DNA from: Candidatus Poribacteria bacterium | GTDB taxonomy: Bacteria; Poribacteria; WGA-4E; GCA-2687025 | NCBI GenBank assembly: GCA_963665845.2 | Contig: OY762492.1 | Coordinates: forward strand, 1,312,001 to 1,376,000 | Direction of reading: 5' to 3' | DNA length: 64,000 bases | In this document: positions 2,900 through 18,499 of the stretch, in pieces | How the letters are laid out: the number at the start of each line of letters is the position of its first letter | How positions within the stretch are numbered: position 1 is the first letter of the stretch | Notes under the pieces: generated by a model | What the model was told of the DNA's origin: nothing | Seen by the model: only the letters and a program-made list of their open reading frames with translations | Database searches by the model: none | Translations under genes and position numbers: made by a program

Positions 2900-2906
2900 C
2901 CCAGAA

Positions 2907-2935
2907 AGTATAATCGACCGCGCCCCTCCTGTCAT
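2907..2935 (-). promoter_or_regulatory. Putative sigma70 promoter, possibly giving a leaderless mRNA for the cytochrome
   Basis: ATGACA-17 bp-TATACT, with the -10 box only 7 nt before the ATG at 2899 and no RBS. Confidence 0.4.
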
Positions 2936-2944
2936 CCCGCGCCC

Positions 2945-3075
2945 CTGACCTTACGTTTTTAGTTGGAACATGCCGGCGGGCGGATGCGGACGGGTTTTGC
3001 GGAGCTTCAGATTCTCTCCCTGTCCCCATTTTCACGGGGACATGTTCGCAGGGTCATGGCTTGCGCAGGAATGAA
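2945..3075. repeat. Partial MITE-like/palindromic repeat element
   Basis: Begins CTGACCTTACGTTTTTAGTTGGAACA (same terminus as other copies); includes a TGTCCCCATTTTCACGGGGACA hairpin. Confidence 0.65.
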
Positions 3076-3113
3076 AAGACTGGCGGGGGTTTGTCCGCAG
3101 ATAGAAGGCGTCG

Positions 3114-3917
3114 TCAGCGCCGCCTGCCGTATTTGACATCCAGCTCCCGAAGACGCGCCAAAGCCTTTTCCGTCGGCTCCTTAAATTCGCCCGACTCATA
3201 AAAATCGCGCGTCTTTGCGTTCAGGTTGCCGTAGAAACGGCGCGTGGATTCGTTAGAACTGCCGCGCCAAAGCTCCGCCGGAATGATCGAATCTTCGCTT
3301 AAATACGGGCGGTCGGCGAACCCGTAATAAATCTGCGCCGTTTTGCGTTCGCGCTGCGTGGGGCGGGTCGTCGCCGTGTGGAGCGCGCCGATGTTGAAAA
3401 GGATGCCCGTTCCCGCTTCGCCGTACAGATCGCGCTTTCCGCCGCGCTCCAGCTGCGGATCGTTTTCAAGGATCGGCTCATCGACCGATTCGGGCGAGAT
3501 GGAAAAGCAGTGCGTCGTCTCGTCCACATCCGTAAAATACAGCATCAGCTGCAGAAAACCGACGCGCAGCGGATGCTCCATCCAGTGTCGCGGCCCGTCC
3601 CTGTGCCACGCCTGATGAAACTCGCCCTCGTAAGCCGCCATGTTGCGCAGGCAGATCTCCGAAAAGCATGGGTTTGGACCCATCAGCTGCCACAGCGCCT
3701 CCATCACAACGGGATGCCGCACAATGCGGTCGAACGCCGGCGAGGTGAATAAGGCGTCGCAGTTGACCGTCTGATGATGCCCGATCCGGTACCAGTGTCC
3801 GTTGGCGCGGTCGCGTTCAAACAGCGCCGTGAACTCCTCCACCTCAGCGTCGGTCAAGATTTTTCCCAGCGACGCGTATCCGTTCTGTTTAAAGAAATGC
3901 ATCTGGACGTCGGTCAT
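3114..3917 (-). CDS. Phytanoyl-CoA dioxygenase (PhyH) family Fe(II)/2-oxoglutarate oxygenase
   Basis: F..NGY..L..IL N-terminus, WHRD (HxD) and distal His (GALHTA). Start overlaps the stop of the upstream gene (ATGA). Confidence 0.85.
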   Translation of the reverse strand: MTDVQMHFFKQNGYASLGKILTDAEVEEFTALFERDRANGHWYRIGHHQTVNCDALFTSPAFDRIVRHPVVMEALWQLMGPNPCFSEICLRNMAAYEGEFHQAWHRDGPRHWMEHPLRVGFLQLMLYFTDVDETTHCFSISPESVDEPILENDPQLERGGKRDLYGEAGTGILFNIGALHTATTRPTQRERKTAQIYYGFADRPYLSEDSIIPAELWRGSSNESTRRFYGNLNAKTRDFYESGEFKEPTEKALARLRELDVKYGRRR

Positions 3918-4801
3918 GGGGTCTCCTCTTCGTTTGGGAGAATGCGCTGCCGGAGACGCGCCATCTCCCGTTCCACTTCCATATTTTGGACTCTCTGATC
4001 AAGCCCGCCGTTCAACTCCACGCCTTCGCCAGGGATGAATTGCGCTCTCATCTCAGCGATCGCCGCGTTCACTTCGTTATGGTCGTCCGCGACTTCATGC
4101 TGGATCATTGATGCCGCTTTTTTAAATCCTTCCTGCTGCTTCGCCGCTTTGATTTCCGCAATTTGTATCCGATAATCTTCCGCTTTCATCTCCATTTGGT
4201 TCAGAGCCTCTGAGCAGTCGTTGATGTTTTGGTCAATCAGCGCGCATAATTCTTCGGCGTTGGCTTTTCGGACGAGAAGGCGCCGCGCGTCGTCTTCCAG
4301 ATCGTCCCGCAAAAACTGCATGGCTGCCATTTCGTAATCCACGATGTTTTGCTGATGCTGACCCAATTCATCCCGCATCTCTTTCAATTTGGTTTGAAAT
4401 TGTTCGATCATGTTGACGAGGCGGATGCGAGCTTTGGATAATTGAAGGATCGCCTTATGGTATTTTTTCCTTCTGCTCACCCGCTGATTTTCTCGATGAA
4501 CAGACACGATCCGATAGACCGCCAATATGAAAATGAGAAGAAACAGCGCCGCGGCGGCATACGCTGCAACCTCGGCGAACCATGGGGAAGCAGGATCCGA
4601 CGCGATCGGAATCACGTATCTGAAGACCGTATAGACCTCTATGATGAACGAGAGCGCCGCCGCAAAGATCCACAACTCGAAGCGCGACTTATGGATGAAT
4701 TGCTTGATGCGCCGAAAACTCCTCTGAATTCGATACCGCAGCGAACCAGGCTTATTGGTCCAATCTCTCGGCAGTAAAGGCGGGAAATGCGGCAATTTCA
4801 T
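3914..4801 (-). CDS. Two-TM protein with PspA/IM30-like coiled-coil domain (Zorya-associated)
   Basis: Two hydrophobic helices at aa ~43-100, PspA-like segment AAMQFLRDDLEDDARRLLVRK, C-terminal VEREMARLRQRI, N-terminal MKLPHF. Confidence 0.6.
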   Translation of the reverse strand: MKLPHFPPLLPRDWTNKPGSLRYRIQRSFRRIKQFIHKSRFELWIFAAALSFIIEVYTVFRYVIPIASDPASPWFAEVAAYAAAALFLLIFILAVYRIVSVHRENQRVSRRKKYHKAILQLSKARIRLVNMIEQFQTKLKEMRDELGQHQQNIVDYEMAAMQFLRDDLEDDARRLLVRKANAEELCALIDQNINDCSEALNQMEMKAEDYRIQIAEIKAAKQQEGFKKAASMIQHEVADDHNEVNAAIAEMRAQFIPGEGVELNGGLDQRVQNMEVEREMARLRQRILPNEEETP

Positions 4802-6027
4802 TCGGATAAATCTTTCGCAAGCTCCATGATGTTGCGCATCTGATTGACGAGCGGACCGTAATCCTGCGTAAACTGTTTGGCGATTTGAGAAAGCTGTTCA
4901 TGCAGCTCATTCATCGATCTGGTCAACGCCGCTTCCGTCGCCTTTTCGAGAGAATGCAACGCATCCGCGCGTTCTCTGATCATCGCATCGATCGAATCGC
5001 CCGCCTTAACCGCGCCGGACTGGAGCGCCGCATTCACCTCCTCTTGGCTCTGTAGTATCAACTCGCGCTGATCCTGCATCCCTGTGTTGATCTCATTCGC
5101 CGCTTCTGTAAACGCCTCGATGGCGCTCATCATCAGAGGCGTGGAGGCGTTTAGGTTTTCGGTTCCTTTCTGAATTGCATGCTGCGCAGGTTCAAGCATA
5201 TCGGCGGCTAGATTAGCCGATTCCACAATCTGCGCAGTTCCTCTCTCCATCTGCGTGACGATCGAATCGAGTCCTGTCAGCGCATGCTCTAGCCGCTCTG
5301 CAATCGTTGAAAACCGTTCGCTTCTTTCAACGACGCTTGTCAGCGTCTGTTCGCAAGCGTCAAGCGCCATGACAGCGCGTTCGATCTGCGCAGTTTGCTC
5401 CTGAATCATCTGCTGATGCTGCCGCTGCCACTCCAGCAAATTGTTGGTTGATTCCGCCAATTTGCGAAAACTTTCTCCGCACTGCCTGCTGATTTCGGCG
5501 TTGAATTTATCGATTGTGCCGGCGAGCGCTTTTTCAATCGCTTTGGCGCATTTTTCAGACACCTCCGCTTCAAACGCTTTTATGTCGCTGCGCATCACTT
5601 GGACTTCGGCGGTGAGCGTCGATACGCCCTCTTTCACCGTTGCGACAATCTCGGCCATACCCGCGTTCCCTTCCGCGAGGGATTCGGAGATCGATTTGAT
5701 CATGACGACCGCTTCCGGCGGTTTTTCATAGGCTTTGGCATGGACAATCTTGAGCAAAACCGCCGTACCCATTCCAAACACGGAGGTGATGAAGGCGAAG
5801 CGCAGCCCCGACAGCAGACTTTGGACGCTGCCCACAAGATTCGCGTTCGGCGCGGACGGGCTGATATTTAAGCCGAAGAGACCGACGCAGATGCCGACGA
5901 ACGTTCCAAGCACGCCCAGCATCGTCGCCAGATTCGGGAGCCGCTCCTTCTGCTCCAACCTTCGATTTGCCAATAGGACGATCAGAACGATCCCTGCGCA
6001 CCAGGCGATAGAAAACGTTAGGTTCAT
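4798..6027 (-). CDS. zorA: ZorA-like (MotA/TolQ/ExbB family) protein, copy 3, 409 aa
   Basis: Three TM helices with LGVLGTFVGI and GLRFAFITSVFG, a helical tail and the conserved tip F..DYGPL. Confidence 0.8.
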   Translation of the reverse strand: MNLTFSIAWCAGIVLIVLLANRRLEQKERLPNLATMLGVLGTFVGICVGLFGLNISPSAPNANLVGSVQSLLSGLRFAFITSVFGMGTAVLLKIVHAKAYEKPPEAVVMIKSISESLAEGNAGMAEIVATVKEGVSTLTAEVQVMRSDIKAFEAEVSEKCAKAIEKALAGTIDKFNAEISRQCGESFRKLAESTNNLLEWQRQHQQMIQEQTAQIERAVMALDACEQTLTSVVERSERFSTIAERLEHALTGLDSIVTQMERGTAQIVESANLAADMLEPAQHAIQKGTENLNASTPLMMSAIEAFTEAANEINTGMQDQRELILQSQEEVNAALQSGAVKAGDSIDAMIRERADALHSLEKATEAALTRSMNELHEQLSQIAKQFTQDYGPLVNQMRNIMELAKDLSE

Positions 6028-6061
6028 GTGCGATCCGTTATTGAAGTTGTCAGATTAAATT

Positions 6062-6853
6062 TCATTGACTGCGCCATTTTTCCAGATATTTTTTGATCTT
6101 TTCGACGACGCCCTCAATCTCTTTCAGTTTCTTTTCCGAGTTGATTCGGACGCGAAACTCCACGCGGCGCGATTTAGACGGGTCTTCATGATTGCCGCTC
6201 TGGGCAATCAGTTTTCCGCCGCTGTCCAGAAGCTTGCTGGACGATAAACCGTTGGCGGTCAGTTTGCTCAATATCCATGCTTGATCGTTCTGAACCGCCT
6301 CTTTTTCGAGTCCGATCACATATTCTAGGACGGAGCGGGTTCGATCCTGCGACAGCTCCATGTTGTTGATGTAGGCGATTCTGGACGTCTCGGCGCCTTC
6401 CCACTCGCTGGATGTATGCCCCTCAATTCGAATCTCTTCAATGTGTCCGCGGAATTTTGAATCGGATACAACCGCAATATACCGCGGAAAAAATTCGTCC
6501 ATGATGCGGAGAAATTTCTCTGGCAGTCTGGAGCTTCCCCTTTCAAAAAACTCTTCAGGGTTAAAGCGTATGTACAGCGTTTCTCGGTCAAGGCTGGCGT
6601 TCCATTTTTCCAGGTCCGCCTCAAATTCACTGTTTAGAGCCTTGTATAACTCATCCTGTAAATCGCGGTGAGATTCTGAAATATCCTTAACATCTTCAAC
6701 CAGCCCCTGAGCGTCCTTCGTTTTCTGCACCGCGTCCACCATGAAACTGATGGCGACAAAAAGAAAAATCACCATCAGCCCCGCCATCATGTCCGATATT
6801 GAAATCCATTGACCCTCGCGCTGATTGTCGGAGGCGCCTAAAAAGGTGCGCAT
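6062..6853 (-). CDS. zorB: ZorB-like (MotB/OmpA family) protein, copy 4
   Basis: GQWISISDMMAGLMVIFLF TM with conserved Asp; OmpA-like domain with IRIEGHTS, LSQDRTRSV, SRRVEFR. Confidence 0.88.
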   Translation of the reverse strand: MRTFLGASDNQREGQWISISDMMAGLMVIFLFVAISFMVDAVQKTKDAQGLVEDVKDISESHRDLQDELYKALNSEFEADLEKWNASLDRETLYIRFNPEEFFERGSSRLPEKFLRIMDEFFPRYIAVVSDSKFRGHIEEIRIEGHTSSEWEGAETSRIAYINNMELSQDRTRSVLEYVIGLEKEAVQNDQAWILSKLTANGLSSSKLLDSGGKLIAQSGNHEDPSKSRRVEFRVRINSEKKLKEIEGVVEKIKKYLEKWRSQ

Positions 6854-6909
6854 CGTTCAATCCCTAGTTTGCGTTAAAATGCCTGCTTGAAAATGCGTCT
6901 GCGCGTCGG

Positions 6910-7551
6910 TCATACGGCGTCCTCCCCGCTGGGTTGAAGGCGTTCTCGGAGACGCGTCATCTCCTGTTCCACCAGCTCATCCGGTTCGTTCGCCGGCGCC
7001 TTGTTCAGCTCGCGCTCCAGCCCCTTCTTCTCCGCTTTGATGTCCATCTCATGCGCGATGCCGCTGCGCCTGTTCTGCGTCTGCGCCGCCTCATGTTTCA
7101 GTATCCACATCTCATGCTGCCGTTTTAACCGTTCAATTTCAAACATATCTTCGTCGTTGCTCATCTTCATCGCCGCCGTCAACGTTTCAATGGAGCGTAT
7201 GTCGTCTTCGATTCGTTCGCATGCCTCCAGCGCCGTCAGTTTGAGTCGGAGATGTTTCTTCGCGTTCTGCTCTTCGTCTAGCAATAGGGCGTTTTCCGCC
7301 GCTTTTTGCGCCTGTTCCGCCTTCCGTTCGTTTTTTTTCAATTCCTCGCGCCAATGCGCTACCGTCTTGTTCGCCTCGCGGATAAATCTTCTCCGCTCCC
7401 CGATCTTTTTGACGCCGTTGACGATCGCCCCTAAGAATTTCTTGTCTGTTTTGGAGGAACGGCGCGGCGCCTGTTTCGGCCAAGGGGATGTCGCCATCCG
7501 TTTGCGCAAACCGGCAAAGTGTCGGTTTTGTCCAAAATCCGGCAGCTTCAT
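6910..7551 (-). CDS. Soluble PspA/IM30-like coiled-coil protein with ZorE-like N-terminal peptide
   Basis: N-terminus MKLPDFGQNRHFAGLRKRM resembles ZorE MKLPNFREHARLNLLRRAM; AAENALLLDEEQNAKKHLRLK and C-terminal VEQEMTRLRERL are PspA-like; ATGA-coupled to zorA. Confidence 0.6.
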   Translation of the reverse strand: MKLPDFGQNRHFAGLRKRMATSPWPKQAPRRSSKTDKKFLGAIVNGVKKIGERRRFIREANKTVAHWREELKKNERKAEQAQKAAENALLLDEEQNAKKHLRLKLTALEACERIEDDIRSIETLTAAMKMSNDEDMFEIERLKRQHEMWILKHEAAQTQNRRSGIAHEMDIKAEKKGLERELNKAPANEPDELVEQEMTRLRERLQPSGEDAV

Positions 7552-9053
7552 TCTAAATCCTTCGCCATCTGAACCACCTCGCGCAGCCTTTCGGTCAGCG
7601 GTCCGTAATCGTCCACAAACTTTTCCGACAGCTCCGCCAACTGACGACCCAGCGTGATCAGCGACTGCTTCAGCGCCGCCTCAAGACTTTTCTCCAGATT
7701 GTTCAACGCCCGCGCCCGCTCCATGAACAGCCGATCCACGCTCTCGCCGATCTTTTCAGCCGCCGCGGCGACCGCTTTATTCATGCCGGCGATGTTTTCA
7801 TCCACCTTCGGCAGCTCGCGGTTCGCCGAGGAGGCGGCGTCCGCAAACGCTTTCCATTCGTCCGTCAAACGGGAGGCGCCGTCGGTCAACGCTTTCAGCG
7901 CCGGCGCTAGTTCCCGCGCCGGCTCCTCCACCGCCGCCAGCGTTTCCTGCCGCGCGGACATATGCTGAATAACCGCCTCTAGACGCTCCGCGGTCTCGAC
8001 AAACAGACCGCTTTGCGCGACCAGTTTGCCCATCGCCCCTTGAATCTCCGAAAGCGCCTGCGAACCCGCCTCCAGCGCCTCTTGCGAGCGGCGGCTCCGT
8101 TCGTCTAGGTTTTTGCTGATTTCGTCCGCCGCCGTTTGAAACGCGCCTGACGCCTGCTTTAAACCGCTCTCTAGCTGTGGAATCGTTTGACCGGCTGTTT
8201 TGGCTGAATCGGCGACGGACCGAAACTCGCCGCCCAGATTGCCCGCCCCTTCCCGCAGCGCTTCCAGCGCCGACGCCAGCTGCGCCGCCGGCTCAACGAG
8301 GCGCGCGATGCGCTCCTCCCGCGTCTCCAGCTCCTCCAATGCGCCGTCCAGACGATCCGCGATGGACGCGAACGCGCCGCTGCGCTCCACAAACGCGCTC
8401 ATCGCCTCCTCCGACGCCTTCAGCGCCGCGATGGAGGCGTCCAGCTGCTTCGACTGCTCCTCCACCTGTTTTGCATGCGCCGTCTGCCATAGATGAAGAC
8501 GGCCGGCAGTGTCGTTCAGCTGACGAAAACTCTCGGCGCATTGGGCGTTGATCTCGGCGTTGAAACCCTCGACAAGGCTCTCCATCGCGGCGGTCAGCGC
8601 CGCCGCCGATTTATCGGCAACCTCCGCCTCAAAGGTTTTGAAATCGCCGCGCAGCTTCTCCGACTGGTCAATGAGGCGCGCGTTGCCGTCGTTGAGCGCC
8701 TGAACAAGCGCGTCCAGCCGCTCCGTCAACGGCTCCAGCGGATCGGACGCATCCTCGTCCGTTTGCTTCATTTTAAGAAAGACGGCGGTACCCATGCCGA
8801 ATACAGAGGTGATGAAGGCGAAGCGGAGACCGTTTAAAAGGCTGCTGGCGCCTTTCTCCAGCTGGGCGATGCCGCCCGTTTCGGACAGCTGAATCCCAAG
8901 CAGGCTCCAACAGACGCCGACGAAGGTGCCGAGAACGCCCAGCATCGTCGCCAGATGCGGCAGCCGCTCTTTTTCCACATTCGGTTTGCGGCTTAGCCAA
9001 AAGACCGCCGCGACGATGCCGACGCACCAGAGAGCGGGAAAAAGATAGTTCAT
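7548..9053 (-). CDS. zorA: ZorA-like protein, copy 2, 501 aa
   Basis: LATMLGVLGTFVGV and GLRFAFITSVFG TM motifs; long helical tail ending KFVDDYGPLTERLREVVQMAKDLE. Confidence 0.82.
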   Translation of the reverse strand: MNYLFPALWCVGIVAAVFWLSRKPNVEKERLPHLATMLGVLGTFVGVCWSLLGIQLSETGGIAQLEKGASSLLNGLRFAFITSVFGMGTAVFLKMKQTDEDASDPLEPLTERLDALVQALNDGNARLIDQSEKLRGDFKTFEAEVADKSAAALTAAMESLVEGFNAEINAQCAESFRQLNDTAGRLHLWQTAHAKQVEEQSKQLDASIAALKASEEAMSAFVERSGAFASIADRLDGALEELETREERIARLVEPAAQLASALEALREGAGNLGGEFRSVADSAKTAGQTIPQLESGLKQASGAFQTAADEISKNLDERSRRSQEALEAGSQALSEIQGAMGKLVAQSGLFVETAERLEAVIQHMSARQETLAAVEEPARELAPALKALTDGASRLTDEWKAFADAASSANRELPKVDENIAGMNKAVAAAAEKIGESVDRLFMERARALNNLEKSLEAALKQSLITLGRQLAELSEKFVDDYGPLTERLREVVQMAKDLE

Positions 9054-9062
9054 TCGCGCGTC

Positions 9063-9884
9063 TCAATCGGCGTCAAAGTTTCCCTGCGCCTCCTTGAATT
9101 CGTCATACAGCTCTTCGATCATCTCGATGCGTTTTTCGGCGCTGATGCGGACGCGGAACTCAACGCGCCGCGACCGCCGCTTGTCTTCGCCCTTGCCGCT
9201 TATTTTAATCAGATTTCCGTTCCTGTCCAACCGCTTGCTGAACGACAAGCCGTTCGCGGTCATGCGGTCTTGGATCCATTCCAGGTTGTCTCTCACGACG
9301 CGCTTTGGAATCTGCAGAACATATTGGAGCGTTGAACGGGTGCGGTCTTGGGACAGCTGCATGTTGAAAAAATACGCCTCATCGGGCGAGGCGCTTTCGT
9401 TCCATTCGCTGGAGGTATGCCCCTCAATGCGTATCTCTTCGATGTCGCCCCGATACTTCTCCTGGGCGAGAATATGCACATAGCGCGGGAAAAAGTCGTC
9501 CAGTATCGCGCGAAAACCAGCCGGCAGACGCGAGCTGCCCTGCCGAAAAAGCATGCCGGGGTCCTGAAACCGAATCGAAAGCGTGTCGGGATCGATCTCG
9601 GCGTTCCACTTTTGGAGATCGTTTGTCCGCTCAAATTCTTGGCGCAGGTCTTGCAGCAGCTCCTTCTGAAGATTGCGGTAGGTTTCCGCCGCCTCCTGGA
9701 CGCTGTCGCGCTGGCGTTCGGCTGTTTTCCGCTGCCTGTCCGCCTCCGCTTTTTTCTGCGCCGCGTCGATCATAAAACTGATTGCAATGAACAGAAAAAC
9801 CGCCATCAGCACGGTCATCATATCGGAGATGGAGAGCCACTGTCCCTCGTTTTGATCGGGGTTTCGGCGGAAGAGATTGCGCAT
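9063..9884 (-). CDS. zorB: ZorB-like protein, copy 3
   Basis: GQWLSISDMMTVLMAVFLF, IRIEGHTS, LSQDRTRS, SRRVEFR. Start is ATG 9884 or TTG 9890. Confidence 0.88.
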   Translation of the reverse strand: MRNLFRRNPDQNEGQWLSISDMMTVLMAVFLFIAISFMIDAAQKKAEADRQRKTAERQRDSVQEAAETYRNLQKELLQDLRQEFERTNDLQKWNAEIDPDTLSIRFQDPGMLFRQGSSRLPAGFRAILDDFFPRYVHILAQEKYRGDIEEIRIEGHTSSEWNESASPDEAYFFNMQLSQDRTRSTLQYVLQIPKRVVRDNLEWIQDRMTANGLSFSKRLDRNGNLIKISGKGEDKRRSRRVEFRVRISAEKRIEMIEELYDEFKEAQGNFDAD

Positions 9885-9899
9885 CGTCAAGACATCCCC

Positions 9900-10718
9900 C
9901 TAGCGTCCGGCGGATACTGGATTCCTCGCCATGTGACCATGTCCAGGCTGCTTTCGGTGGCACCAATGGCACAAAGCCTTCAGGTTGGTGCGGTCGTTGT
10001 TCGCCTTATTTCCGTCGATGTGGTGAACATGCAGACGTTGTCTCTGTACTCGGAAATTAATTAGGCATTGTTCACATACCCACCCGACAGACTCCCGGTA
10101 TTGGAGCGATATTTCATGCCAATCTTCTGGATATACGTTGGCAGGGGCTGTTTCGTTATTGTGCAGCGGGAGCCATGTGGTCGGCGTTTCCCGATACATC
10201 TCAAAAAACTCATCCAGCCTGAAATTACGATAGATTTCGTCCCAATCCCGTCCGTATTGGCGATAGCCTTTATACCGCAGCTTAGCGAGGCAGTTTTTAC
10301 AGACATTCAAGCGGACATGTTCGGTTTGGACGCCGGCGTACCCGTTGTTAACATTGATCTGGAAGATGCCGTCTGTCCGATTTGAGACGACATATCGATG
10401 CCCTCTACCGCCCTTGATCATGCCACTGAGCGTTCCGCAGTGCGCGATGTGAAATTTCGGTCTTGATCCTAAGGAGCTGACATCGCGGATATAGATCAGC
10501 ACCCTCTCTCCATTGATCGCGAGAGTGCCGTCAGATCCTATGACGAGATCATCGGGGTTCACCTCCAGGCCTTCGCGAGACGCGAGCGTTTTACGAAGCT
10601 CGTTCGGGTCCAGGGATTTCCATCCGGCCCCGCCTCGTTCCTGCTCCACATATTCGGCGCCCATCGCGCGGCGCAGGAGATTCAGACGCGCATGTTCACG
10701 GAAATTGGGCAGCTTCAT
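9900..10718 (-). CDS. zorE: HNH endonuclease, Zorya type II effector ZorE-like
   Basis: PKFHIAHCGTL, RYVV..R.DG.F and VCKNCL motifs; C-terminal CEQC...LHVHHIDGNKANN...NLKALCHWCH HNH; lies downstream of zorAB. Confidence 0.85.
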   Translation of the reverse strand: MKLPNFREHARLNLLRRAMGAEYVEQERGGAGWKSLDPNELRKTLASREGLEVNPDDLVIGSDGTLAINGERVLIYIRDVSSLGSRPKFHIAHCGTLSGMIKGGRGHRYVVSNRTDGIFQINVNNGYAGVQTEHVRLNVCKNCLAKLRYKGYRQYGRDWDEIYRNFRLDEFFEMYRETPTTWLPLHNNETAPANVYPEDWHEISLQYRESVGWVCEQCLINFRVQRQRLHVHHIDGNKANNDRTNLKALCHWCHRKQPGHGHMARNPVSAGR

Positions 10719-11425
10719 TATGCAATTCCTCCCTCTTCGACAATGCGGGTGATGCGCTTCTCGGCGTTGATGGCGATTCGGAATTCAAGGCGGCGCGACC
10801 GCATTTTGTCCTCGTTTCCGTTTTTCAGCAAGCGCGGTTTGCTTGATGAAAGCCCGTTGGCGGTCAGTCGGCTTAGCATCCACTGCCGCTCTCTGGGTAT
10901 CGGCGTACGCGAGATGCCCAGGACAAATTCCAACGCGGCGCGGGCGCGGTTTTGGGTCAGCTCCATGTTGCGGATATACGCCTCTTCAGAGGTTGCAGTT
11001 TTGCTCCAGTCGCTGGATGTGTGCGCTTCAATGCGTATTTCTTTGATGGCGTCCCGATACTTTTCGCGGGCGAGTATCCGTATGTAACGCGGGAAGAAAT
11101 CGTCCAGGATCGCGCGCAGCGGCGTTTGAAGCTTTGAGGCTTCTGCTTGAAAGAGCATGTCGGGCGTTTGAAAACGCACCGAAAGGGCGACGGCGTCCAG
11201 CTCGGCTTGCCACTCGTCCAGATCGTTTCTGAATTCATCGTAGAGATCTTTGTACAGACCTGCCTGAAGACGTTGATGGCCAACGGCAATCGCCTTGAGT
11301 CCATCTCGAACGCTCTCCGCTCTCTTTCTTTGGGTACGCTCACGGATCAGCGAGCCGATGAGGACGATAAGGATTGCGACAGCAAAAACCCCCATGCTTT
11401 CAACCGGCATATTCTCAAAAGGCAT
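10718..11425 (-). CDS. Degenerate ZorB paralog (copy 2) lacking the W.S.SD ion-binding motif
   Basis: OmpA-like domain close to 11501-12253 (DDFFPRYIRILA, LTANGLSSSK, SRRLEFR), but the TM is GVFAVAILIVLIGSLI with no Asp, and EGHT is replaced by EAHT. Confidence 0.8.
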   Translation of the reverse strand: MPFENMPVESMGVFAVAILIVLIGSLIRERTQRKRAESVRDGLKAIAVGHQRLQAGLYKDLYDEFRNDLDEWQAELDAVALSVRFQTPDMLFQAEASKLQTPLRAILDDFFPRYIRILAREKYRDAIKEIRIEAHTSSDWSKTATSEEAYIRNMELTQNRARAALEFVLGISRTPIPRERQWMLSRLTANGLSSSKPRLLKNGNEDKMRSRRLEFRIAINAEKRITRIVEEGGIA

Positions 11426-11500
11426 ACGGCGCCTTTCTACGAGTTTCGGATGCCGGCAAGGAGCCGACTCCTGTAAAAGCGCGAGCCAGGTTTGAGCGCG

Positions 11501-12253
11501 TCATTCAACGATTCCTCCCTCTTGGATAATGCGGACGATCTGTTCCTCGGCGTTCGTACGGACGCGAAACTCAACGCGCCGAGACTGTATTTTATCTTCT
11601 TCGTCGCCATTTTTGAAGCGGAGCTTGCTGGACGAAAGCCCGTTGGCGGTCAAATGCTTCTTGACCCAATCCCGCTCTTTCGGCATCGGAGATTTCTGGA
11701 TATTTAAGACGTGCTTTAACACGGCGCGCGTCCGATCCTGGGACAGTTTCATGTTTAGAATATATGCCTTATCCTGCGAAACGGACACATTCCACTCGCT
11801 GGACGTATGCCCTTCAATGCGTATCTCTTCGATGTCGTCCCGATATTTTTCCTGATCGTCCAGGGCGAGAATTCGAATATAGCGCGGGAAGAAATCGTCC
11901 AGGATGCCTTCAAACCGCTCCTGAAGATCTGCTTTTCCTATCTCAAAAAGAACGTCCGGCGCACGAAAACGCACCGAGAGCGTCGGCTTGTCGATGGTGG
12001 CGTCCCACTCGTCTAGATTGTCTTTGAACTCATCAAGCAGATCGTTGTACAGATCGTTCTGAAGACGCTGGTAGGTGACGGCGATCTCTTTGATGCTGTC
12101 TCTTTCCACCTCGATTTTGTTCTTTTTCTCCTGCGCGTCCAGCATGAAACTGAGCGCGACAAACAGGAAAATCACCATGAGACCGGCCATCATGTCGGAG
12201 ATGGAGATCCATTGTCCCTCGTCCTGCTGTTCGGGAAGCTGCTGGTCATTCAT
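11501..12253 (-). CDS. zorB: ZorB (MotB/OmpA family), copy 1
   Basis: GQWISISDMMAGLMVIFLF, IRIEGHTSSEW, LSQDRTRAV, SRRVEFRV; directly follows zorA. Confidence 0.9.
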   Translation of the reverse strand: MNDQQLPEQQDEGQWISISDMMAGLMVIFLFVALSFMLDAQEKKNKIEVERDSIKEIAVTYQRLQNDLYNDLLDEFKDNLDEWDATIDKPTLSVRFRAPDVLFEIGKADLQERFEGILDDFFPRYIRILALDDQEKYRDDIEEIRIEGHTSSEWNVSVSQDKAYILNMKLSQDRTRAVLKHVLNIQKSPMPKERDWVKKHLTANGLSSSKLRFKNGDEEDKIQSRRVEFRVRTNAEEQIVRIIQEGGIVE

Positions 12254-12287
12254 CGTTCAAACCTTCCATTTTCATCGCTTGAGCGGT

Positions 12288-14741
12288 TCAAGATCGGCTC
12301 CGAGAAGTCGCCGACGATCTTGGCGGGGAGGGGTCCTCTAAACCTTCCGCTATCCGCACAACTCTGCGCAGTTGCTCCGTAAGCGGCGTGTAATCTTGAA
12401 CAAACCTTGTCGAAAGCGACACCAGCTGACTCGCAAGTGAATTGAGCGCTTTGGTAAGCTCTTCGCCGAGCGCATTGTCCAGCTCCTCCGTCTGCTTCGC
12501 CATGTTTTCGCCTGCCGTTCTGACGAATTCCGCTATATGGTTGCTCATCTGCGTTGCGGATTCTGTGACGCGCCGGTTCATGGCATTGTGAGCTTGCTCA
12601 ATCCGTTGGCTTGTGTTGTTGACGCTGAGCAGAGCTTCGGCGGCGGCGCTTGAGATGGATCCGCTAGCGTTCTGGACGCTTTCGCTCATCTCGGCTTGAA
12701 CTCTCTGAAATTCCGTTATCAGCTCCATCTGGCTTTTCATGTTTTCAAGCGCATCCGCGGCGGCGCTGACAAATCCATTGACAGCGGCTTTGATCTGTTC
12801 ATTGACAGTCTCTTGGGTTTGCGCGATTTGATACCGCTGGTTCGCCATACTTGCGAACGCGCTGTCCGCGGCGTTTTTGAATCCGTCCGCGGTCGCTTCG
12901 ATTTGTGCGTTCACGTTCGTTTGCGTCTGTTCGATCTGCGTTCGCTGGTTTTCCATGCTCGTCAGCGCCGTTTGAGTCGATTTCTCAAATCCAGCCGCTG
13001 TTTGCTCAATGCGGCTTTGCTGCGTTTTCAGACCCTCAACCGACGCTTCAGCGGCGTCCTTGAATCCATCCGCCGCTTCTTGTATCTGCGCATTCACACC
13101 CTGCTGAAACGACTGCATCTGATTTCTCTGCTGACTCATGCTGTCAAGCGACGCCGCAACCGATTGTTGAAAATCTGCCGCCGTTTGCTTTACTCCTGCA
13201 TTGACGGCATCTTGATTTTCTTTAATTCGTTCGCGCTGCTTGTCCATACTCTCAACCGACGCATCAACCGATTTTTTGAATTCGTCTGCGGCATTCGTCA
13301 CCCCCGAGTTGACGATCTCTTGATTCTTTTCAATCAGTTCGCGCTGACCATCCATGCTCGCCAATGACGCATCAACCGAATTCTTGAAGCCAGCCGCTGT
13401 CTCCTGTATCTGCGCGCCAACCTGCTTCTGGTTTTCCGCCATCAACGTCTGCTGTTCCTCCAGGCTCGTTTTCAGTTGGGCGTTCACCTGTTCCTGATTC
13501 TTTTCCAGCTGACCAGCTTGATTCTTGATACTTTCCAACGCGGCGCCGGCGGATTCCGTAAACCCGTTCGCCGTTTCCTGTATCTGCGCGCCGACCTGCT
13601 TCTGGTTTTCAGCCATCAATGTCTGCTGTTCCTCCAGGCTGGTTTTCAGTTGGGCGTTCACCTGCGCCTGATTCTTTTCCAGCTGGTCAGCTTGATTCTC
13701 GATACTTTTCATTGCGGCGCCGGCGGATTCCGTAAATCCATTCGCCGTTGTCGTCAGCCCGCTTGTGATCTGCTCAATGTTCTGCTGTATCGATGGGAAG
13801 GCGCTTTCCGCCCGTTCGCCGAGATTCGCCAGCGCCGCAAGATGCGCGTTCATCGCCTCGTTGCGCGCGCTTAGATCGCCCAGCGCCTCGTCTAGCCGGT
13901 CGGCGACGCCCGCAAACGTCTCGCTCCGCTCAACGACGACTCCCATCGACTCCTTACAGCTCTCCAGCGCCTCCATCGACTGCCGCAGCTGCCCGACCAT
14001 CGCCTCCACCTGCTCCTTGTAGTTTTCCTGCCAAGTGAGCAGCTGCCCGACCGCTTCATTGAGCTGCTTGAAGTTGTCGCCGAACTGCTCATTGATTTTG
14101 GCGTTGAAATCGCGCATCACCTCCTCCAGCGCCTCAATGAGCGCCTTGGAGTTGTTCTCCGCCATCGATTCGGCAAACTCCCGAAATTCCTTGATGAGAT
14201 CGTCCTGCTTGTCGGAAAAGGTTGTGCGCATCTTCTGCATCTGCGTCAACAGGGTTGTGTCGCCTTCACCGGTCAGGGCGCGCTCCACCGCCCCGATCTT
14301 GTTTAAAAGCGTCGACTCGCCCTCTCCCGTGACCGCATTCGCGACCGCCGCCGTGTTTTCGTTGATTTCCTGAAAGCCGTTCTTCAGTAGATCGGCAAGC
14401 GTGTCAAGCGTGGCGCCTTCCGTCGCCTGTCCCTCTGTCTTGCCCCGCCCCGAGATCTTGCCCAGAAAGAATCCTCTCAGTACGACTGCAGTAAGAATTC
14501 CAGCTACGGAGGTGATGAACGCAGTACTGAGACCCTCCAGCAGACCAGGTATGCTGCCGTTGATGTCCGCTACGTCGAATCCCCGTAGCCCGTACAGGAT
14601 TCCTCCGAAGGTTCCGAGAATGCCTAAGACCGTCGCAAAGTTGGGAATGGACGCTCTGTGAGGATTCCCCCGCAGCCGAATCGCAAGGATGATTGAAACA
14701 ACGATGATGAACGCGCTATACGCCAGCGCTAAGTTCAGCAT
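12288..14741 (-). CDS. zorA: ZorA with very long repetitive helical tail, copy 1, 817 aa
   Basis: Three TMs (LGILGTFGGI, GLSTAFITSVAG), DFNAKINEQFGDNFKQLN..V..L..WQ motif and a ~700 aa Gln/Ala-rich tail. Confidence 0.9.
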   Translation of the reverse strand: MLNLALAYSAFIIVVSIILAIRLRGNPHRASIPNFATVLGILGTFGGILYGLRGFDVADINGSIPGLLEGLSTAFITSVAGILTAVVLRGFFLGKISGRGKTEGQATEGATLDTLADLLKNGFQEINENTAAVANAVTGEGESTLLNKIGAVERALTGEGDTTLLTQMQKMRTTFSDKQDDLIKEFREFAESMAENNSKALIEALEEVMRDFNAKINEQFGDNFKQLNEAVGQLLTWQENYKEQVEAMVGQLRQSMEALESCKESMGVVVERSETFAGVADRLDEALGDLSARNEAMNAHLAALANLGERAESAFPSIQQNIEQITSGLTTTANGFTESAGAAMKSIENQADQLEKNQAQVNAQLKTSLEEQQTLMAENQKQVGAQIQETANGFTESAGAALESIKNQAGQLEKNQEQVNAQLKTSLEEQQTLMAENQKQVGAQIQETAAGFKNSVDASLASMDGQRELIEKNQEIVNSGVTNAADEFKKSVDASVESMDKQRERIKENQDAVNAGVKQTAADFQQSVAASLDSMSQQRNQMQSFQQGVNAQIQEAADGFKDAAEASVEGLKTQQSRIEQTAAGFEKSTQTALTSMENQRTQIEQTQTNVNAQIEATADGFKNAADSAFASMANQRYQIAQTQETVNEQIKAAVNGFVSAAADALENMKSQMELITEFQRVQAEMSESVQNASGSISSAAAEALLSVNNTSQRIEQAHNAMNRRVTESATQMSNHIAEFVRTAGENMAKQTEELDNALGEELTKALNSLASQLVSLSTRFVQDYTPLTEQLRRVVRIAEGLEDPSPPRSSATSRSRS
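13403..13749. repeat. 174-bp (58 aa) near-perfect tandem repeat inside zorA
   Basis: CCTGTATCTGCGCGCC at 13403 and 13577; peptide TANGFTESAGAA...NAQLKTSLEEQQTLMAENQKQVGAQIQE occurs twice. Confidence 0.95.
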
Positions 14742-14774
14742 TGAAATCTTCTCCGAATGTAAGGTTAAGTTTAA

Positions 14775-14803
14775 AGTTTAGCGTTAAACGCTGTCGGCGT
14801 CAA
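14775..14803 (-). promoter_or_regulatory. sigma70 promoter of the Zorya operon with a palindromic candidate operator
   Basis: TTGACG-17 bp-TAAACT; palindrome AGCGTT-A-AACGCT at 14780-14792; GGAG RBS at 14751-14754. Confidence 0.7.
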
Positions 14804-14857
14804 GGGTAACGGGCTGATGTTGACGCAATGCGAACGCGGACGGTTTCCGCGCAGGAA

Positions 14858-17800
14858 TTACGAGGCGGGGGAGCGCGGCGCCTTCAAAACGACCCCCCAT
14901 TCGCCCAAAGCCCAGACCGCCGCGCCGTCTTCCGACACGGCTAAAAAGCGCAGGGCGTATTGGACAGGGGAGCGCAGTTTCTGCCATGTCTCTCCGCCGT
15001 CCGTTGTATGGAGAATGACGCCGTCGTTTCCGACCGCATACGCCTCCTTCTCCGACAGCGCCTCAACCCAGTTCAAGTCGCTTGAGAGACCGCTCTTCTG
15101 CTTTGTCCATGCGGCGCCGATGTCTTCCGTCCGCAGAATGATTCCGTATTGCCCGACCGCCCATCCGACGCGGGGCGACGCGGCGCAAACGCTGTTCAAG
15201 GAGTATGCCGTGCCGCTCTCCTGGTCTCGCCAGCGCGTTCCGCCGGAGGAGCTGTGCAGCATGATGCCGCGCGAACCCGCGATCCATCCGTAGCCGAACC
15301 GGTCGAGGTGAACGGAGCGCAGGTCGTATCCTTCGCCTTTCATCTGCCGTTCCCATTCGGGTCCGCCGTCTGGGTTATGGACGATGACGCCGCCCTGTCC
15401 GACCGCCCAGGTTTCGCCGAAGCCGGACATGAACCCGCCGTTGAGTCGGACGCGCCCCTGCAGCGGCTCCGATTCCAGCGGCGTCCATCCGAAGCCGTCT
15501 TCGGTGAAGAGATGCGACCCGGCGGCGTCCAACGCCCATCCGAAACCGCGCCCTTTGCTTGCCCAGTGCATGGCGATGATGCTGGGTCCGCCGCTTTTCT
15601 GCTCTGTCCATGTTTGTCCGCCGTCTGCCGTGTGGATAATCAGCCCGTCTTCGCCTGCCGCCCATCCTTCGTCTGTCGACAGAAACCGACCCGCGCCGAG
15701 AGCCTGCGGCGAGCTTTCAACGAGCGTATCCCATGACGCGCCGCCGTCCGTCGTTTTATAGAGCCGCCCGCCTTCTGCCGCCCAGCCTTGCGAGGGCGAC
15801 AGAAAATAGGTCGACGCAAAACGCTCCGTCCCGGCGGGCGACCAGCTCTGCCCTCCGTTCAGCGTGAAATAGGCGCGCCCCTGACGCTGCGCCGCCCATG
15901 CGGTCTGTTCATCCAAGACGCGCGCCTTCTGCATGCCGAGCAGGCGGCGCCTTCCTCCCGACTCCCAGGTCTCTCCGTCCCTTGTGATGAGCGTCTCTCC
16001 GCTGGATGAGATCGTCATTCCGTTCGTTGGGGTAAAGAAGAGTATTGCCGCCGGCGTCTGCGCAGGTTTTGCCTGTATCGCCCAGGTTTCGCCGCCGTCG
16101 CGCGTGTGGAGAATGAAGCCGCCTTCGCCTCTCTGCGGGGCGACCGCCCATCCATGCGTCGGCGAGACGAAAAAGAGCGTTCGGACCGCCGCGTTCGTCG
16201 CCGCGGTGTCCTTATGGAGCCATGTTTGTCCGCCGTCGTTGGTGCGCAGGATCGTCCCATGCCCTGCGCTGATCCAGGCATGCCGCGCGTCTAAAACGAA
16301 CAGGTCGGTGAAACGCTGGCGCGCCGAGGAGTTTTGATATTCCCATGTTTCGCCGCCGTCTTTGGTGGCGAGTATCGTTCCTTCGCCGCCGATCGCCCAG
16401 CCATGCATATCGTCCGCGAAGGCGACGCGGGTCAAGCGGTTCTGGACGCCCGATTCGCGCGGCTCCCAGGTCTTTCCGCCGTCGTTCGTCAAGGCGATCA
16501 TGCCGTTCAAGCCGACGGCGGCGCCGCGCGTCTCGTTGGCAAAGGCGACGTCCAGAAACTGGGTCGGCCATGCGCTGACGCGGACAACCTCCCAGCCCGC
16601 CTCCAGTTCGGGTACGCGCGGCGGCTCTTCGACGGTTGGGCGCGTCTGCGCGATCACATCGTCCAGCGTCCCCTGGTCAGGTTTGATGTCGGGCGTGTAG
16701 CGGATGACGATTCCGCCCTGTCCGACCGCGACGACGCCTTGGGAGGAGACGGCAAAATCGAGCAGATCGTTCTCGGAGCCGCTTTCGTTTTGAATCCATA
16801 TTTCGCCGCCGTTGACGGTGGTCAGAAGCATGCCGTCGTCCCCGATCGCCATCCCCCAATACTCGTTCAGGAAGAAGACGCGGTTTAGGTTCGTGAGCGT
16901 TCCGCTGGCTTGAAACGCCCATGTGTCGCCGCCGTCTTTAGTGTGCAGTATTTCGCCTTCCTGCCCGACGATCCATCCGACATTTTGGTTCACAAAATGC
17001 AAGCCGTAGAGTTCGTTGAAGGTGCCGCTGTCCTGCCGTTCCCAGGTCAGCCCGCCGTCCTGTGTGCGGTAGACGATGCCCGGCCATCCGACGATCCAGC
17101 CATGGTTTTGGTCAAGAAAGAAAACAGCGGTGAGCGTTTGAAACTCGAACGGCTTCTGGTTCGCCCAGTTGCGCCCGCCGTCCTTGGTGTAGATGATGGT
17201 GCCGAGATCGCCGACCGCCCAGCCGCGGTTCGCGTCTAAAAAGAAAACGCCGTTCAGTTGGAACCCCATGCCGCCTGTTTGGTAACGCCATGTTTTTCCG
17301 CCGTCTACGGTGTTCATGACGATGCCGCGTTCGCCGACCGCCCAGCCGCGCAGTTCGTCGATGAAGGCGACGCTTTTGAGCGTGTCGACCTGCCCCGTTT
17401 TCTGTTCCACCCATGTTTTTCCGCCGTCTTCGGAAGTGAGCAGCGTCCCGCCCGTTCCGACGGCGATGGCGCGTTCGTCCGACACAAATTCAACCGATTC
17501 AAGATGGTGCGCCATGACGGCTCCGCTGACCGTGTTCCAGGTTTTCCCGCCGTCTTCAGAGTGGAGAATGACGCCGTACCATCCGCATGCCCATGCTTCG
17601 TTTTTGGAGACGAATTGAATGTCGGTCAGGTTTGTTTGATAGCCGCTGTTGCGGAGCGTCCATGTGTCGCCGCCGTCGTCGGTTTGGGAGATATGTCCGC
17701 CGTTTGCGACGGCGGCGCCGTTTCGGTCGTCCCAGAAGTCGATGCCGTTGACCGAGAAGCGCACATGGTCGGTGAACGGGATTCGGCTGTCTTGGCGTTC

Positions 17801-18499
17801 CCAGCTGCCGCCGCCGTTGACTGTTTTGAAGATGGAGCCGTCCGTTCCGCAGATCCAGCCGACCCGCTCGTTGTAGAAATCGGCGCGGTGGTAGTTGTTG
17901 AGAAGCCGATCTTCCATGCCTTCGTGTCGGGTTGTGAGCGGCGCCCAGGACTGTCCCCCGTCCAGCGTTTTCAGCAGAACCTCCATGTCGCCCATGGCGT
18001 ATCCGATCTGTTTGGTGACGAATTCGGCGTCGTTGAGCGGGTATTCGGCGCCGCTGGGGACGCGCCCCCATTCTTCGCCTGCGGTTTCGCTGGCGTAGAT
18101 GTCCCATGTTTCGCCGACCGCATAGACCGTGTTTCGGTCGGTGTAATGGGCGCCGCGCAGGATCGCGCGCGTTGGAAAGTTTGCCCGTTTCCATTGCTTT
18201 CCGCCGTCGGTTGTGTAGACGGCGGTTCCGAGTTCGCCGACCGCGAATCCGCGCAGCTGGTCGTAAAAATGGATGTCGTACAGTTCTCGGTTGACGCCGC
18301 TGTCCTGCCGTTCCCAGGTCTGTCCGCCGTCGGAGGTGTGGGCGATCATGCCGCCGGAGCCGACGAACCATCCGCGTTGGGCGTCCACGAAGGAGAGGGC
18401 GCGGAAGTCGGTTTCCCAGTCCGCTTTTCGAACAACCTCGTGGCGCGCGCATCCGAGTATGCATACGGCGGCGGCAATCAAGGCGCAGTGTCTCAACAT
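14858..18499 (-). CDS. YCF48/BNR-repeat multi-beta-propeller lipoprotein, 1213 aa
   Basis: Lipobox-like ILGC and more than 20 repeats of GW.VG..G.I..T.DGG.TW. Confidence 0.9.
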   Translation of the reverse strand: MLRHCALIAAAVCILGCARHEVVRKADWETDFRALSFVDAQRGWFVGSGGMIAHTSDGGQTWERQDSGVNRELYDIHFYDQLRGFAVGELGTAVYTTDGGKQWKRANFPTRAILRGAHYTDRNTVYAVGETWDIYASETAGEEWGRVPSGAEYPLNDAEFVTKQIGYAMGDMEVLLKTLDGGQSWAPLTTRHEGMEDRLLNNYHRADFYNERVGWICGTDGSIFKTVNGGGSWERQDSRIPFTDHVRFSVNGIDFWDDRNGAAVANGGHISQTDDGGDTWTLRNSGYQTNLTDIQFVSKNEAWACGWYGVILHSEDGGKTWNTVSGAVMAHHLESVEFVSDERAIAVGTGGTLLTSEDGGKTWVEQKTGQVDTLKSVAFIDELRGWAVGERGIVMNTVDGGKTWRYQTGGMGFQLNGVFFLDANRGWAVGDLGTIIYTKDGGRNWANQKPFEFQTLTAVFFLDQNHGWIVGWPGIVYRTQDGGLTWERQDSGTFNELYGLHFVNQNVGWIVGQEGEILHTKDGGDTWAFQASGTLTNLNRVFFLNEYWGMAIGDDGMLLTTVNGGEIWIQNESGSENDLLDFAVSSQGVVAVGQGGIVIRYTPDIKPDQGTLDDVIAQTRPTVEEPPRVPELEAGWEVVRVSAWPTQFLDVAFANETRGAAVGLNGMIALTNDGGKTWEPRESGVQNRLTRVAFADDMHGWAIGGEGTILATKDGGETWEYQNSSARQRFTDLFVLDARHAWISAGHGTILRTNDGGQTWLHKDTAATNAAVRTLFFVSPTHGWAVAPQRGEGGFILHTRDGGETWAIQAKPAQTPAAILFFTPTNGMTISSSGETLITRDGETWESGGRRRLLGMQKARVLDEQTAWAAQRQGRAYFTLNGGQSWSPAGTERFASTYFLSPSQGWAAEGGRLYKTTDGGASWDTLVESSPQALGAGRFLSTDEGWAAGEDGLIIHTADGGQTWTEQKSGGPSIIAMHWASKGRGFGWALDAAGSHLFTEDGFGWTPLESEPLQGRVRLNGGFMSGFGETWAVGQGGVIVHNPDGGPEWERQMKGEGYDLRSVHLDRFGYGWIAGSRGIMLHSSSGGTRWRDQESGTAYSLNSVCAASPRVGWAVGQYGIILRTEDIGAAWTKQKSGLSSDLNWVEALSEKEAYAVGNDGVILHTTDGGETWQKLRSPVQYALRFLAVSEDGAAVWALGEWGVVLKAPRSPAS

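Follow-up and report, generated by a model that had tools for sequence, protein, structure and literature searches.

A variant type II Zorya locus with predicted PspA-fold proteins as third genes in Candidatus Poribacteria

What do two PspA-like proteins do behind the zorA genes of a Zorya locus, where a type II system has the HNH nuclease ZorE as its third gene? The locus lies in a stretch of 64,000 nucleotides from a Candidatus Poribacteria bacterium (assembly GCA_963665845.2, contig OY762492.1, positions 1,312,001 to 1,376,000), which we refer to as the window and in which coordinates are given below unless a locus number precedes them. The two genes, here called X1 and X2, were proposed in an earlier note, made from the sequence alone, to encode PspA/IM30-like paralogs that act as new Zorya effectors. 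The locus is a variant of Zorya type II with putative PspA-fold cargo, new as far as our literature searches show. The observations that carry this account are the fold of the two proteins, the gene order, the translational coupling, the similarity of an N-terminal leader to that of ZorE, and the conservation of this leader and of the tip of the ZorA tail.

Third genes of the zorB-zorA-X modules

The genes, all on the minus strand, are in the order zorA1, zorB1, zorB2, zorE, zorB3, zorA2, X1, zorB4, zorA3, X2 and phyH. The locus is a canonical zorA-zorB-zorE set with a spare zorB, followed by two zorB-zorA-X modules. There are three zorA, four zorB and one zorE in total, a single ZorE for three ZorA proteins. 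The order zorA-zorB-zorE with the HNH protein third fits module 1, into which the extra zorB is inserted; modules 2 and 3 are zorB-zorA-X. For all three ZorA and all four ZorB proteins the best-scoring models are those of type II, and the gene with the HNH domain is zorE. As in type II systems, ZorA has a MotA-like transmembrane part with a long tail, and ZorB has a transmembrane aspartate and a peptidoglycan-binding domain. All ZorA and ZorB proteins of the locus fall below the NCBIfam equivalog cut-offs, and Zorya genes were found nowhere else in the genome.

X1 (6910..7551, minus strand, 213 amino acids) is the third gene of module 2, and X2 (3914..4801, minus strand, 295 amino acids) is the third gene of module 3. 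Both start at an ATGA overlap with the stop codon of the gene upstream (7551-7548 for X1, 4801-4798 for X2), and the genes upstream are type II zorA (PADLOC ZorA2, E 9e-46 and 2.8e-58). The earlier note had this placement right; it missed the zorB-zorA-X order of the modules and the ZorE-type N-terminus. The two proteins align with each other (43 of 154 positions identical, pair E 2e-7), and the segments quoted for this alignment are present in the translations. X1 is soluble, with no hydrophobic segment and a maximum 19-residue hydropathy of 0.19. X2 has two transmembrane helices at residues 41-59 (hydropathy 1.72; 4681-4625, minus strand) and 78-96 (2.54; 4570-4514), ahead of the hairpin described below.

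The PspA assignment is based on profiles and folds because neither X protein alone passes a PspA model. Scans of the single sequences against Pfam, NCBIfam, PADLOC and PHROGs gave no significant match; X2 reaches PF04012 at E 0.86 (9.6 bits) and TIGR02977 at E 0.048, and X1 has no Pfam match at E<=1. The PF04012 gathering score of 33.9 bits is not reached by X1, by X2, by the ortholog P0004 (16.2 bits) or by P0006, a distant relative of X2 (14.4 bits). When a profile built from 16 X sequences alone, without any annotated PspA, was compared with the PDB, the top 10 of 32 matches were all PspA/Vipp1 (best E 1.2e-5) and four PDB sequences had E<0.001. By profile the X proteins match a group of host PspAs that are themselves above the Pfam cut-off (the L003 type, discussed below) at 29-44 bits, versus at most 7.2 bits for ZorA coiled-coil controls, and the explanation as generic coiled coils was rejected on these controls.

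The predicted structure of X1 has a mean predicted local distance difference test (pLDDT) score of 77.6, with the hairpin above 90, and that of X2 a score of 70, with the hairpin at 80-87; alpha4 and alpha5 are of low confidence in both. The helices of the X1 model (residues 10-21, 34-90, 94-162, 172-183 and 192-205) are five in number and follow the PspA order in an alpha0-alpha5 topology. Superposed on residues 1-144 of E. coli PspA (4WHE), the models give root mean square deviations (rmsd) of 1.5 A over 115 columns for X1 and 1.7 A over 111 columns for X2. In Foldseek, a check suggested in the earlier note, PspA/Vipp1 structures top the list for both models. The first 16 listed rows for X1 are Vipp1/PspA, two of them at E<=0.001, and the top seven rows for X2 are Vipp1, none at E<=0.001. 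In the ESM Atlas the first match of X1 bears PF04012 (score 0.92), and for X2 the score of 0.82 is a lead only.

The elements of the PspA family are reported to be a hairpin, alpha4, alpha5 and a membrane-binding alpha0 at residues 1-22 (PMC8281802). The predicted models of X1 and X2 show the alpha1-alpha2/3 hairpin and, after it, alpha4 and alpha5, without a normal alpha0, and the alpha5 motif VE.E[ML].RLR is kept across the X sequences. Neither protein has the N-terminal amphipathic alpha0 of the family. The N-terminus of X1 is weakly amphipathic (best hydrophobic moment 0.48, versus 0.69-0.89 in three host PspAs), and X2 has a basic amphipathic helix at residues 24-34 (hydrophobic moment 0.95), which is separated from the hairpin by the two transmembrane helices. 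The PspA/IM30 identity first proposed is borne out by the X-only profile, by the Foldseek matches of both predicted structures and by the ESM Atlas, and X1 and X2 are supported by profiles and predicted structures as divergent proteins of the PspA/Vipp1 (bacterial ESCRT-III) fold.

The ZorE-type leader and the ZorA tail tip

ZorE homologs from many samples start with MKLP[DN]F, followed by a helix that ends in L-R-x-x-M-G. We define the leader as M[KN]LP[DN]F-x8-L[RK]-x2-M at the protein start, a definition of this analysis and not a curated family. The leader of zorE (10718-10656, minus strand) was located by alignment of ZorE homologs and by a start-scoring matrix. The leader of X1, residues 1-19 (7495..7551, minus strand), reads M-K-L-P-D-F and continues with L15, R16 and M19 in the ZorE register, a full match to the pattern. 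X2 begins with MKLPxF (4801-4784) and matches residues 1-6 only. M[KN]LPxF occurs at 7 of the 131,545 ATG codons in six frames, and three of these seven are zorE, X1 and X2.

The matrix covers 20 positions and was trained on 28 of 32 distant ZorE sequences, with the X proteins outside the training set; four sequences with variant starts (P0041, P0055, P0056 and P0057) and the nine closest ZorE matches were left out. Applied to the 106,102 candidate starts of the genome, the matrix gives zorE the highest score (42.2 bits) and X1 the second highest (13.0 bits); the next start reaches 5.0 bits, and the N-termini of the host PspAs score -14 bits or lower. In the profile-to-Vipp1 alignment the PspA match begins only at profile position 31, Vipp1 residue 21, and the leader therefore occupies the alpha0 slot. 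It is also the best-kept part of X1, with 16 of 18 residues identical in a second genome of the genus (G001) versus 66% overall. The leader of ZorE keeps 16 of 20 residues in the same comparison, versus 14 of 43 in the variable stretch that follows. As the conserved columns of two leader alignments result from selection by the search motifs, no evidence is drawn from them. A search of eight genomes of the family with a leader alignment that includes X1, and is circular for X1, found no further leader-bearing gene at E<0.001. The ZorE mutants described in section 15 of 10.64898/2026.05.12.724681 are at residue 90 and beyond, with none in the leader.

The candidate partner of the leader is the tip of the ZorA tail. 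Among ZorA proteins picked by their membrane part alone, 24 of 24 distinct sequences end in F..DYxPL, after a tail of variable length. On a tip profile the conserved tips of ZorA1 (about 12339-12518, minus strand) and ZorA2 (7551-7733, minus strand) score 86.8 and 81.6 bits, and the diverged tip of ZorA3 (4801-4986, minus strand) scores 46.0 bits. The diverged tip belongs to the same module as the degenerate leader of X2. Between the window and G001 the zorA2 tip is identical at 55 of 61 positions and the rest of the tail at 237 of 340. Conservation equal to that of the tip is also seen in an internal stretch of the ZorA2 tail (151-175), which is thus another candidate docking site. In type I, deletion of the tail tip is reported to end the co-localisation of ZorD (PMC11946911).

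The leader is found outside Zorya as well. A DNA pattern built from ZorE and X1 gave 126 loci, 120 from metagenomes (a sample of about 290) and six viral. They include 63 ZorE behind zorB, seven behind zorB that are cut or short, and three ZorE at contig edges. Another 30 are internal MKFPNF matches inside an unrelated gene and were set aside, which leaves 23 others. Among these, 19 are long enough to score, and 13 match at the positions left free by the pattern too (p<0.01 each), the other six being not significant. The 13 are starts of open reading frames on unrelated bodies and represent a handful of lineages, not 13 events. The bodies are DUF3846 proteins that are near-identical among themselves (L086, L136, L137, L139); other small proteins in phage-like DNA, some of them zinc-finger-like (L135, L021, L034, L111); HD-type nucleotide phosphohydrolases in plasmid-type DNA (L033:1147-2145, L068:28-1002, L108); and a small cysteine-rich protein (L121). 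The plasmid NZ_CP136863.1 (L168:6001-6996) carries the leader on an HD phosphohydrolase behind a DUF3991-TOPRIM gene. From these sequences the leader looks portable, and the phage and plasmid proteins that bear it may be candidate decoys of Zorya II.

Two of the DUF3846 leader genes lie at L136:685-1089 and L137:2643-2936, the leader gene at L135:5001-5414 adjoins an ArdC anti-restriction gene, and Methylocella plasmids have weaker leader matches. A looser viral pattern added two junk matches of 12 and 30 amino acids and no further carriers, and the phage leader has no match in 50,697 annotated phage records. The ZorE scan of genome contigs found one locus. Short ZorE forms of 170-204 amino acids, in closed frames behind zorA-zorB, are present at L016, L022, L024, L025, L028, L031, L032, L035, L049 and L092; they are too short for the whole HNH part.

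Origin, proposed role and alternatives

The genome holds three ordinary PspA genes elsewhere. All eight X proteins compared match the host PspA at L003 best (pairwise E 1.8e-5 to 3e-11). In trees of 24 and 21 rows, the X proteins and L003-type PspAs are separated from the other rows by a branch with support 95/92 and 96/92; both trees are unrooted, have long branches and contain sequences from one family only, with outside PspAs left out. The X proteins are likely derived from the L003-type PspA lineage of the host. A branch that sets the X1 and X2 families apart together appears in only 22% of the bootstrap trees of the first tree, and the two join at 88/87 in the second, which omits L003, L161 and L155; X1 and X2 probably share one origin. 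The L003 PspA itself (L003:974-2091, G000:C1 about 2641400-2642500) is coupled behind a gene with a bifunctional nuclease domain (PF02577), and the same arrangement is found in G001 (L014).

X1 forms four clusters at 90% identity including its own, and X2 three plus the distant relative P0006, which is 40% identical to X2 and still begins with a ZorE-like N-terminus. Searches of 61 and of 151 genomes, some of them incomplete, each matched X proteins in two, both times the genome described here and G001. The modules were not found in the other six of eight family genomes searched, and a metagenome scan with the X alignment gave none among 591 candidates. The order in G001 is zorA1-zorB1-zorE-zorB3-zorA2-X1-phyH. 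X1 is likewise joined to phyH on contigs of the metagenome runs labelled "X5" and "X6", and the second zorB-zorA-X module is therefore a variable addition. In comparison with G001, X1 has a ratio of nonsynonymous to synonymous substitutions (dN/dS) of 0.36 at a dS of 0.65, ZorE has 0.43 and the host PspA 0.42; by these sequence comparisons X1 is under purifying selection. The proposal that the X proteins are Zorya partners is strengthened by the ZorE-type leader, the translational coupling, the zorB-zorA-X1 order in a second genome and this selection.

The ZorB loci of two further genomes have no X gene. In G002 the neighbour is an EH-signature gene (type I-like), and in G005 the order is zorA-zorB-zorE-like. 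In the G005 locus (L149:6164-9341) the ZorA tip (DYGKL) and the start of the third gene are both off consensus, and Pfam finds nothing in the C-terminal half of that gene. The zorA1 of G001 (C24 18052-20195, L009/L010) is split between two frames near 19190, either by a genuine frameshift or by misassembly of the repetitive tail.

In type II systems, ZorAB is reported to send ZorE to the membrane only on infection, ZorE to damage host DNA, and Zorya I and II not to depolarise cells (PMC11890865). We tentatively read X1 and X2 as membrane-remodelling cargo that ZorA recruits in place of the nuclease, a reading that we favour without calling it probable. The leader would dock on the conserved tip of the ZorA tail, and a motor activated by phage would recruit X1 or X2. 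The recruited protein would then polymerise, and the polymer would remodel or seal the inner membrane at the site of infection, which would be its benefit in defence. Sealing at the injection site was one of the three functions suggested in the earlier note. For lack of an amphipathic alpha0, X1 would depend on the motor, on X2 or on a host PspA for its contact with the bilayer; X2 would be anchored by its own transmembrane helices. It is possible, although we think it doubtful, that ZorE carries in its first 20 residues a portable tag that addresses proteins to the ZorA tip, that this lineage swapped the nuclease for an ESCRT-III cargo and so gained a membrane-remodelling defence set off by the rotary motor where the phage enters, and that phages (on DUF3846 and other small early genes) and plasmids (on HD phosphohydrolase fusions) carry the tag on decoys that jam Zorya II.

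Several results weigh against reading X1 and X2 as recruited cargo. The match of X1 to ZorE is at the core of the leader only, since at 12 pattern-free positions X1 is like random sequence (p 0.48; orthologs 0.16-0.64), and all 28 leave-one-out scores of ZorE (18.6-57) exceed its 13 bits. X2 has no leader match beyond residue 6. The PADLOC ZorE models miss the N-terminal 30 residues of X1 and of X2, a comparison of low power in which the first 30 residues of ZorE itself reach E 0.027. Among the 126 leader loci, all outside this genus, none has a PspA body or stands behind zorA; the PspA-type Zorya module is so far confined to one uncultured genus, and G001 holds X1 without X2. The similarities of tip and leader over 32 loci are weakly correlated (rho 0.18) and confounded by kinship. 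From the rise of a helix, a tail of 400 residues would put the tip tens of nanometres from the membrane. PspA without alpha0 is reported still to form rods and no longer to tubulate membranes (PMC12358876), and X1 is without an amphipathic alpha0.

This last feature would suit a regulator or scaffold, in which the leader docks and the PspA body is only a multivalent polymer that clusters or sleeves the ZorA tails, or that occupies the docking sites and holds off the host-nicking ZorE until infection. The alpha0 helices of Vipp1 are reported to line the lumen of the ring (PMC8281802), so that leaders in their place would face inward as an array. The damage that ZorE does to host DNA, and the fact that a single ZorE serves three ZorA here, are also in keeping with such a role, as is the dampening of CBASS by PspA as a tether (PMC11153139). 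We nevertheless regard it as somewhat unlikely, since each X has its own complete motor pair with the aspartate motif intact, more than a decoy needs, and X2 has gained transmembrane helices and lost most of the leader. The zorB-zorA-X unit could instead have left phage defence and been domesticated for envelope stress, the motor sensing damage to wall and membrane and recruiting PspA as PspBC or LiaI do. PspA and LiaH are reported to be recruited by membrane sensors (PMC7619361), a Pfam scan of the 22 flanking open reading frames showed no other defence gene, and the position beside phyH is kept in G001 and in the contigs of runs "X5" and "X6". This is unlikely, because the modules stay attached to an intact zorA-zorB-zorE set, vary in copy number between strains and are lacking in the six family genomes mentioned above, and because the genome already has its ordinary PspA genes.

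A recombination during tandem expansion that put a pspA copy behind the start of zorE would make X1 and X2 inert or decaying chimeras with a leftover leader. The divergence of the leader in X1 and its near loss in X2 fit this account, and zorB2 shows that degenerate duplicates arise in the locus. The constraint on X1, strongest in the leader, the intact orthologs of both families and the ZorE-like start kept by P0006 make it improbable. The earlier note had suggested an abortive depolarising effector, in which the transmembrane helices of X2 would form a pore once the PspA body polymerises. Two such helices on a polymer-forming scaffold point that way, as does a pore-forming toxin that stands at rank 8 of the Foldseek list with a weak match (E 0.039, TM-score 0.21). 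This match is at the level of generic helices and below seven Vipp1 rows, however, X1 is the more widely held form and has no transmembrane segment, and depolarisation is disfavoured for Zorya as a whole by PMC11890865 and PMC11946911, in which the systems assayed had no PspA-type partner; we give the pore a still smaller chance. Scarcely any weight falls on the remaining suggestion of that note, that the X proteins offset an ion leak from three or four motors. PspA is reported to help keep the proton-motive force (PMC11237479), but in the solved ZorAB complexes the ion path is closed at rest (PMC11890865), and leak compensation leaves the ZorE-type leader unexplained.

The wider locus and its relation to known systems

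Module 1 begins with zorA1 (12288..14741, minus strand), which encodes a type II ZorA of 817 amino acids with a long coiled-coil tail (PADLOC ZorA2, E 2.9e-102). The type II zorB1 (11501..12253, minus strand; PADLOC ZorB2, E 1.3e-92, and alignment) has the transmembrane aspartate motif SISD, which in the alignment is kept in zorB1, zorB3 and zorB4 and lost in zorB2. The ZorB aspartate is reported to be needed for type II defence (PMC11890865), and the required residue presumably corresponds to that of the SISD motif here. The extra zorB2 (10718..11425, minus strand) is not in the G001 locus. It is a duplicate that retains the periplasmic domain, has no conserved aspartate in its transmembrane helix and may be a non-conducting or a regulatory subunit. 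The HNH nuclease gene zorE (9900..10718, minus strand, 272 amino acids) is recognised by PADLOC ZorE2 (E 4.2e-80) and is above the cut-off for the Pfam HNH domain.

Module 2 opens with zorB3 (9063..9890, minus strand), which starts at TTG 9890 or ATG 9884, has an intact aspartate motif and is 87% identical to its ortholog in G001; it continues with zorA2 (7548..9053, minus strand, type II, 501 amino acids, PADLOC ZorA2). Module 3 opens with zorB4 (6062..6853, minus strand; PADLOC and alignment), also with the motif intact, followed by zorA3 (4798..6027, minus strand, type II, 409 amino acids, PADLOC ZorA2). The last gene, phyH (3114..3917, minus strand), encodes a dioxygenase of the PhyH family (Pfam PhyH) and is coupled to X2 by ATGA; in G001 it overlaps X1 by four bases. 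It is 93% identical to the G001 gene, with dN/dS 0.10, and is probably a host gene beside the insertion.

The content of guanine plus cytosine is 0.50-0.58 in most 1-kb bins versus 0.597 for the contig. A single contig of the metagenome run labelled "X2", which may be the source of this DNA, covers 2900-15000 with no differences, and run "X4" tiles the stretch with five overlapping identical pieces; misassembly as an explanation of the locus is not supported. Promoter and terminator scans of the locus were uninformative. Directly upstream of zorA1 and on the same strand is a gene for a YCF48/BNR-repeat beta-propeller of 1213 amino acids (14858-18499, minus strand), in whose place G001 has another gene. 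A short repeated palindrome-like element flanks genes at about 1755-1860 and 2940-3070; it recurs several times in G001, and loose read ends are numerous at 2945-3000.

With the described Zorya type II (ZorA2-ZorB2-ZorE; PMC11890865; PADLOC PDLC00637/641/643) the locus shares the long-tailed ZorA, a ZorB with transmembrane aspartate and OmpA-like domain, an intact ZorE, and a ZorE N-terminal signature on the third gene of module 2. It differs in its three zorA and four zorB in tandem, with two modules zorB-zorA-X, and in the third gene of the extra modules, which is PspA-fold and has no nuclease domain. With PspA/Vipp1/IM30 (PF04012; PDB 4WHE, 6ZVR, 7ABK; PMC8281802) the X proteins share the alpha1-alpha2/3 hairpin (rmsd 1.5-1.7 A), alpha4, the terminal alpha5 and the hinge motif A..AL...E..AR..L..K. 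They differ in falling below the Pfam cut-off, in being encoded in a Zorya operon and in having the ZorE leader (X1), or an amphipathic helix and two transmembrane helices (X2), where the family has alpha0, and their alpha4-alpha5 stretch is shorter than in L003-type PspAs. As in PspBC-PspA and LiaI-LiaH (PMC7619361), a membrane sensor would bring a PspA-family protein to damaged membrane, but the sensor here would be the wall-anchored 5:2 ion motor of a defence system, and no PspB, PspC or LiaI adjoins the X genes. The conjugation of a CBASS cyclase to PspA (PMC11153139) is another reported use of PspA by a defence system; there it is an ordinary host PspA that serves as a covalent tether, whereas here dedicated divergent copies lie within the system.

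Over 98% of PspA homologs are reported to show little architectural variation (PMC11237479), and the main text of this survey has no occurrence of MotA, defense or Poribacteria. Full-text searches of the literature, covering main texts and few subscription papers, found no PspA-type Zorya partner, no docking leader of ZorE and no leader mimic; the Zorya papers covered show ZorE recruitment, with no named binding element found.

The range within a single genus limits the generality of the PspA swap. The locus is a natural domain swap that points to the 20-residue leader of ZorE and the conserved ZorA tip as a candidate pair. If recruitment of the X proteins by ZorA is true, Zorya would have a non-nuclease cargo of ESCRT-III type, and ESCRT-III membrane remodelling would be linked to a dedicated anti-phage system. 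The leader would then also give a short list of phage and plasmid proteins as candidate inhibitors of Zorya II.

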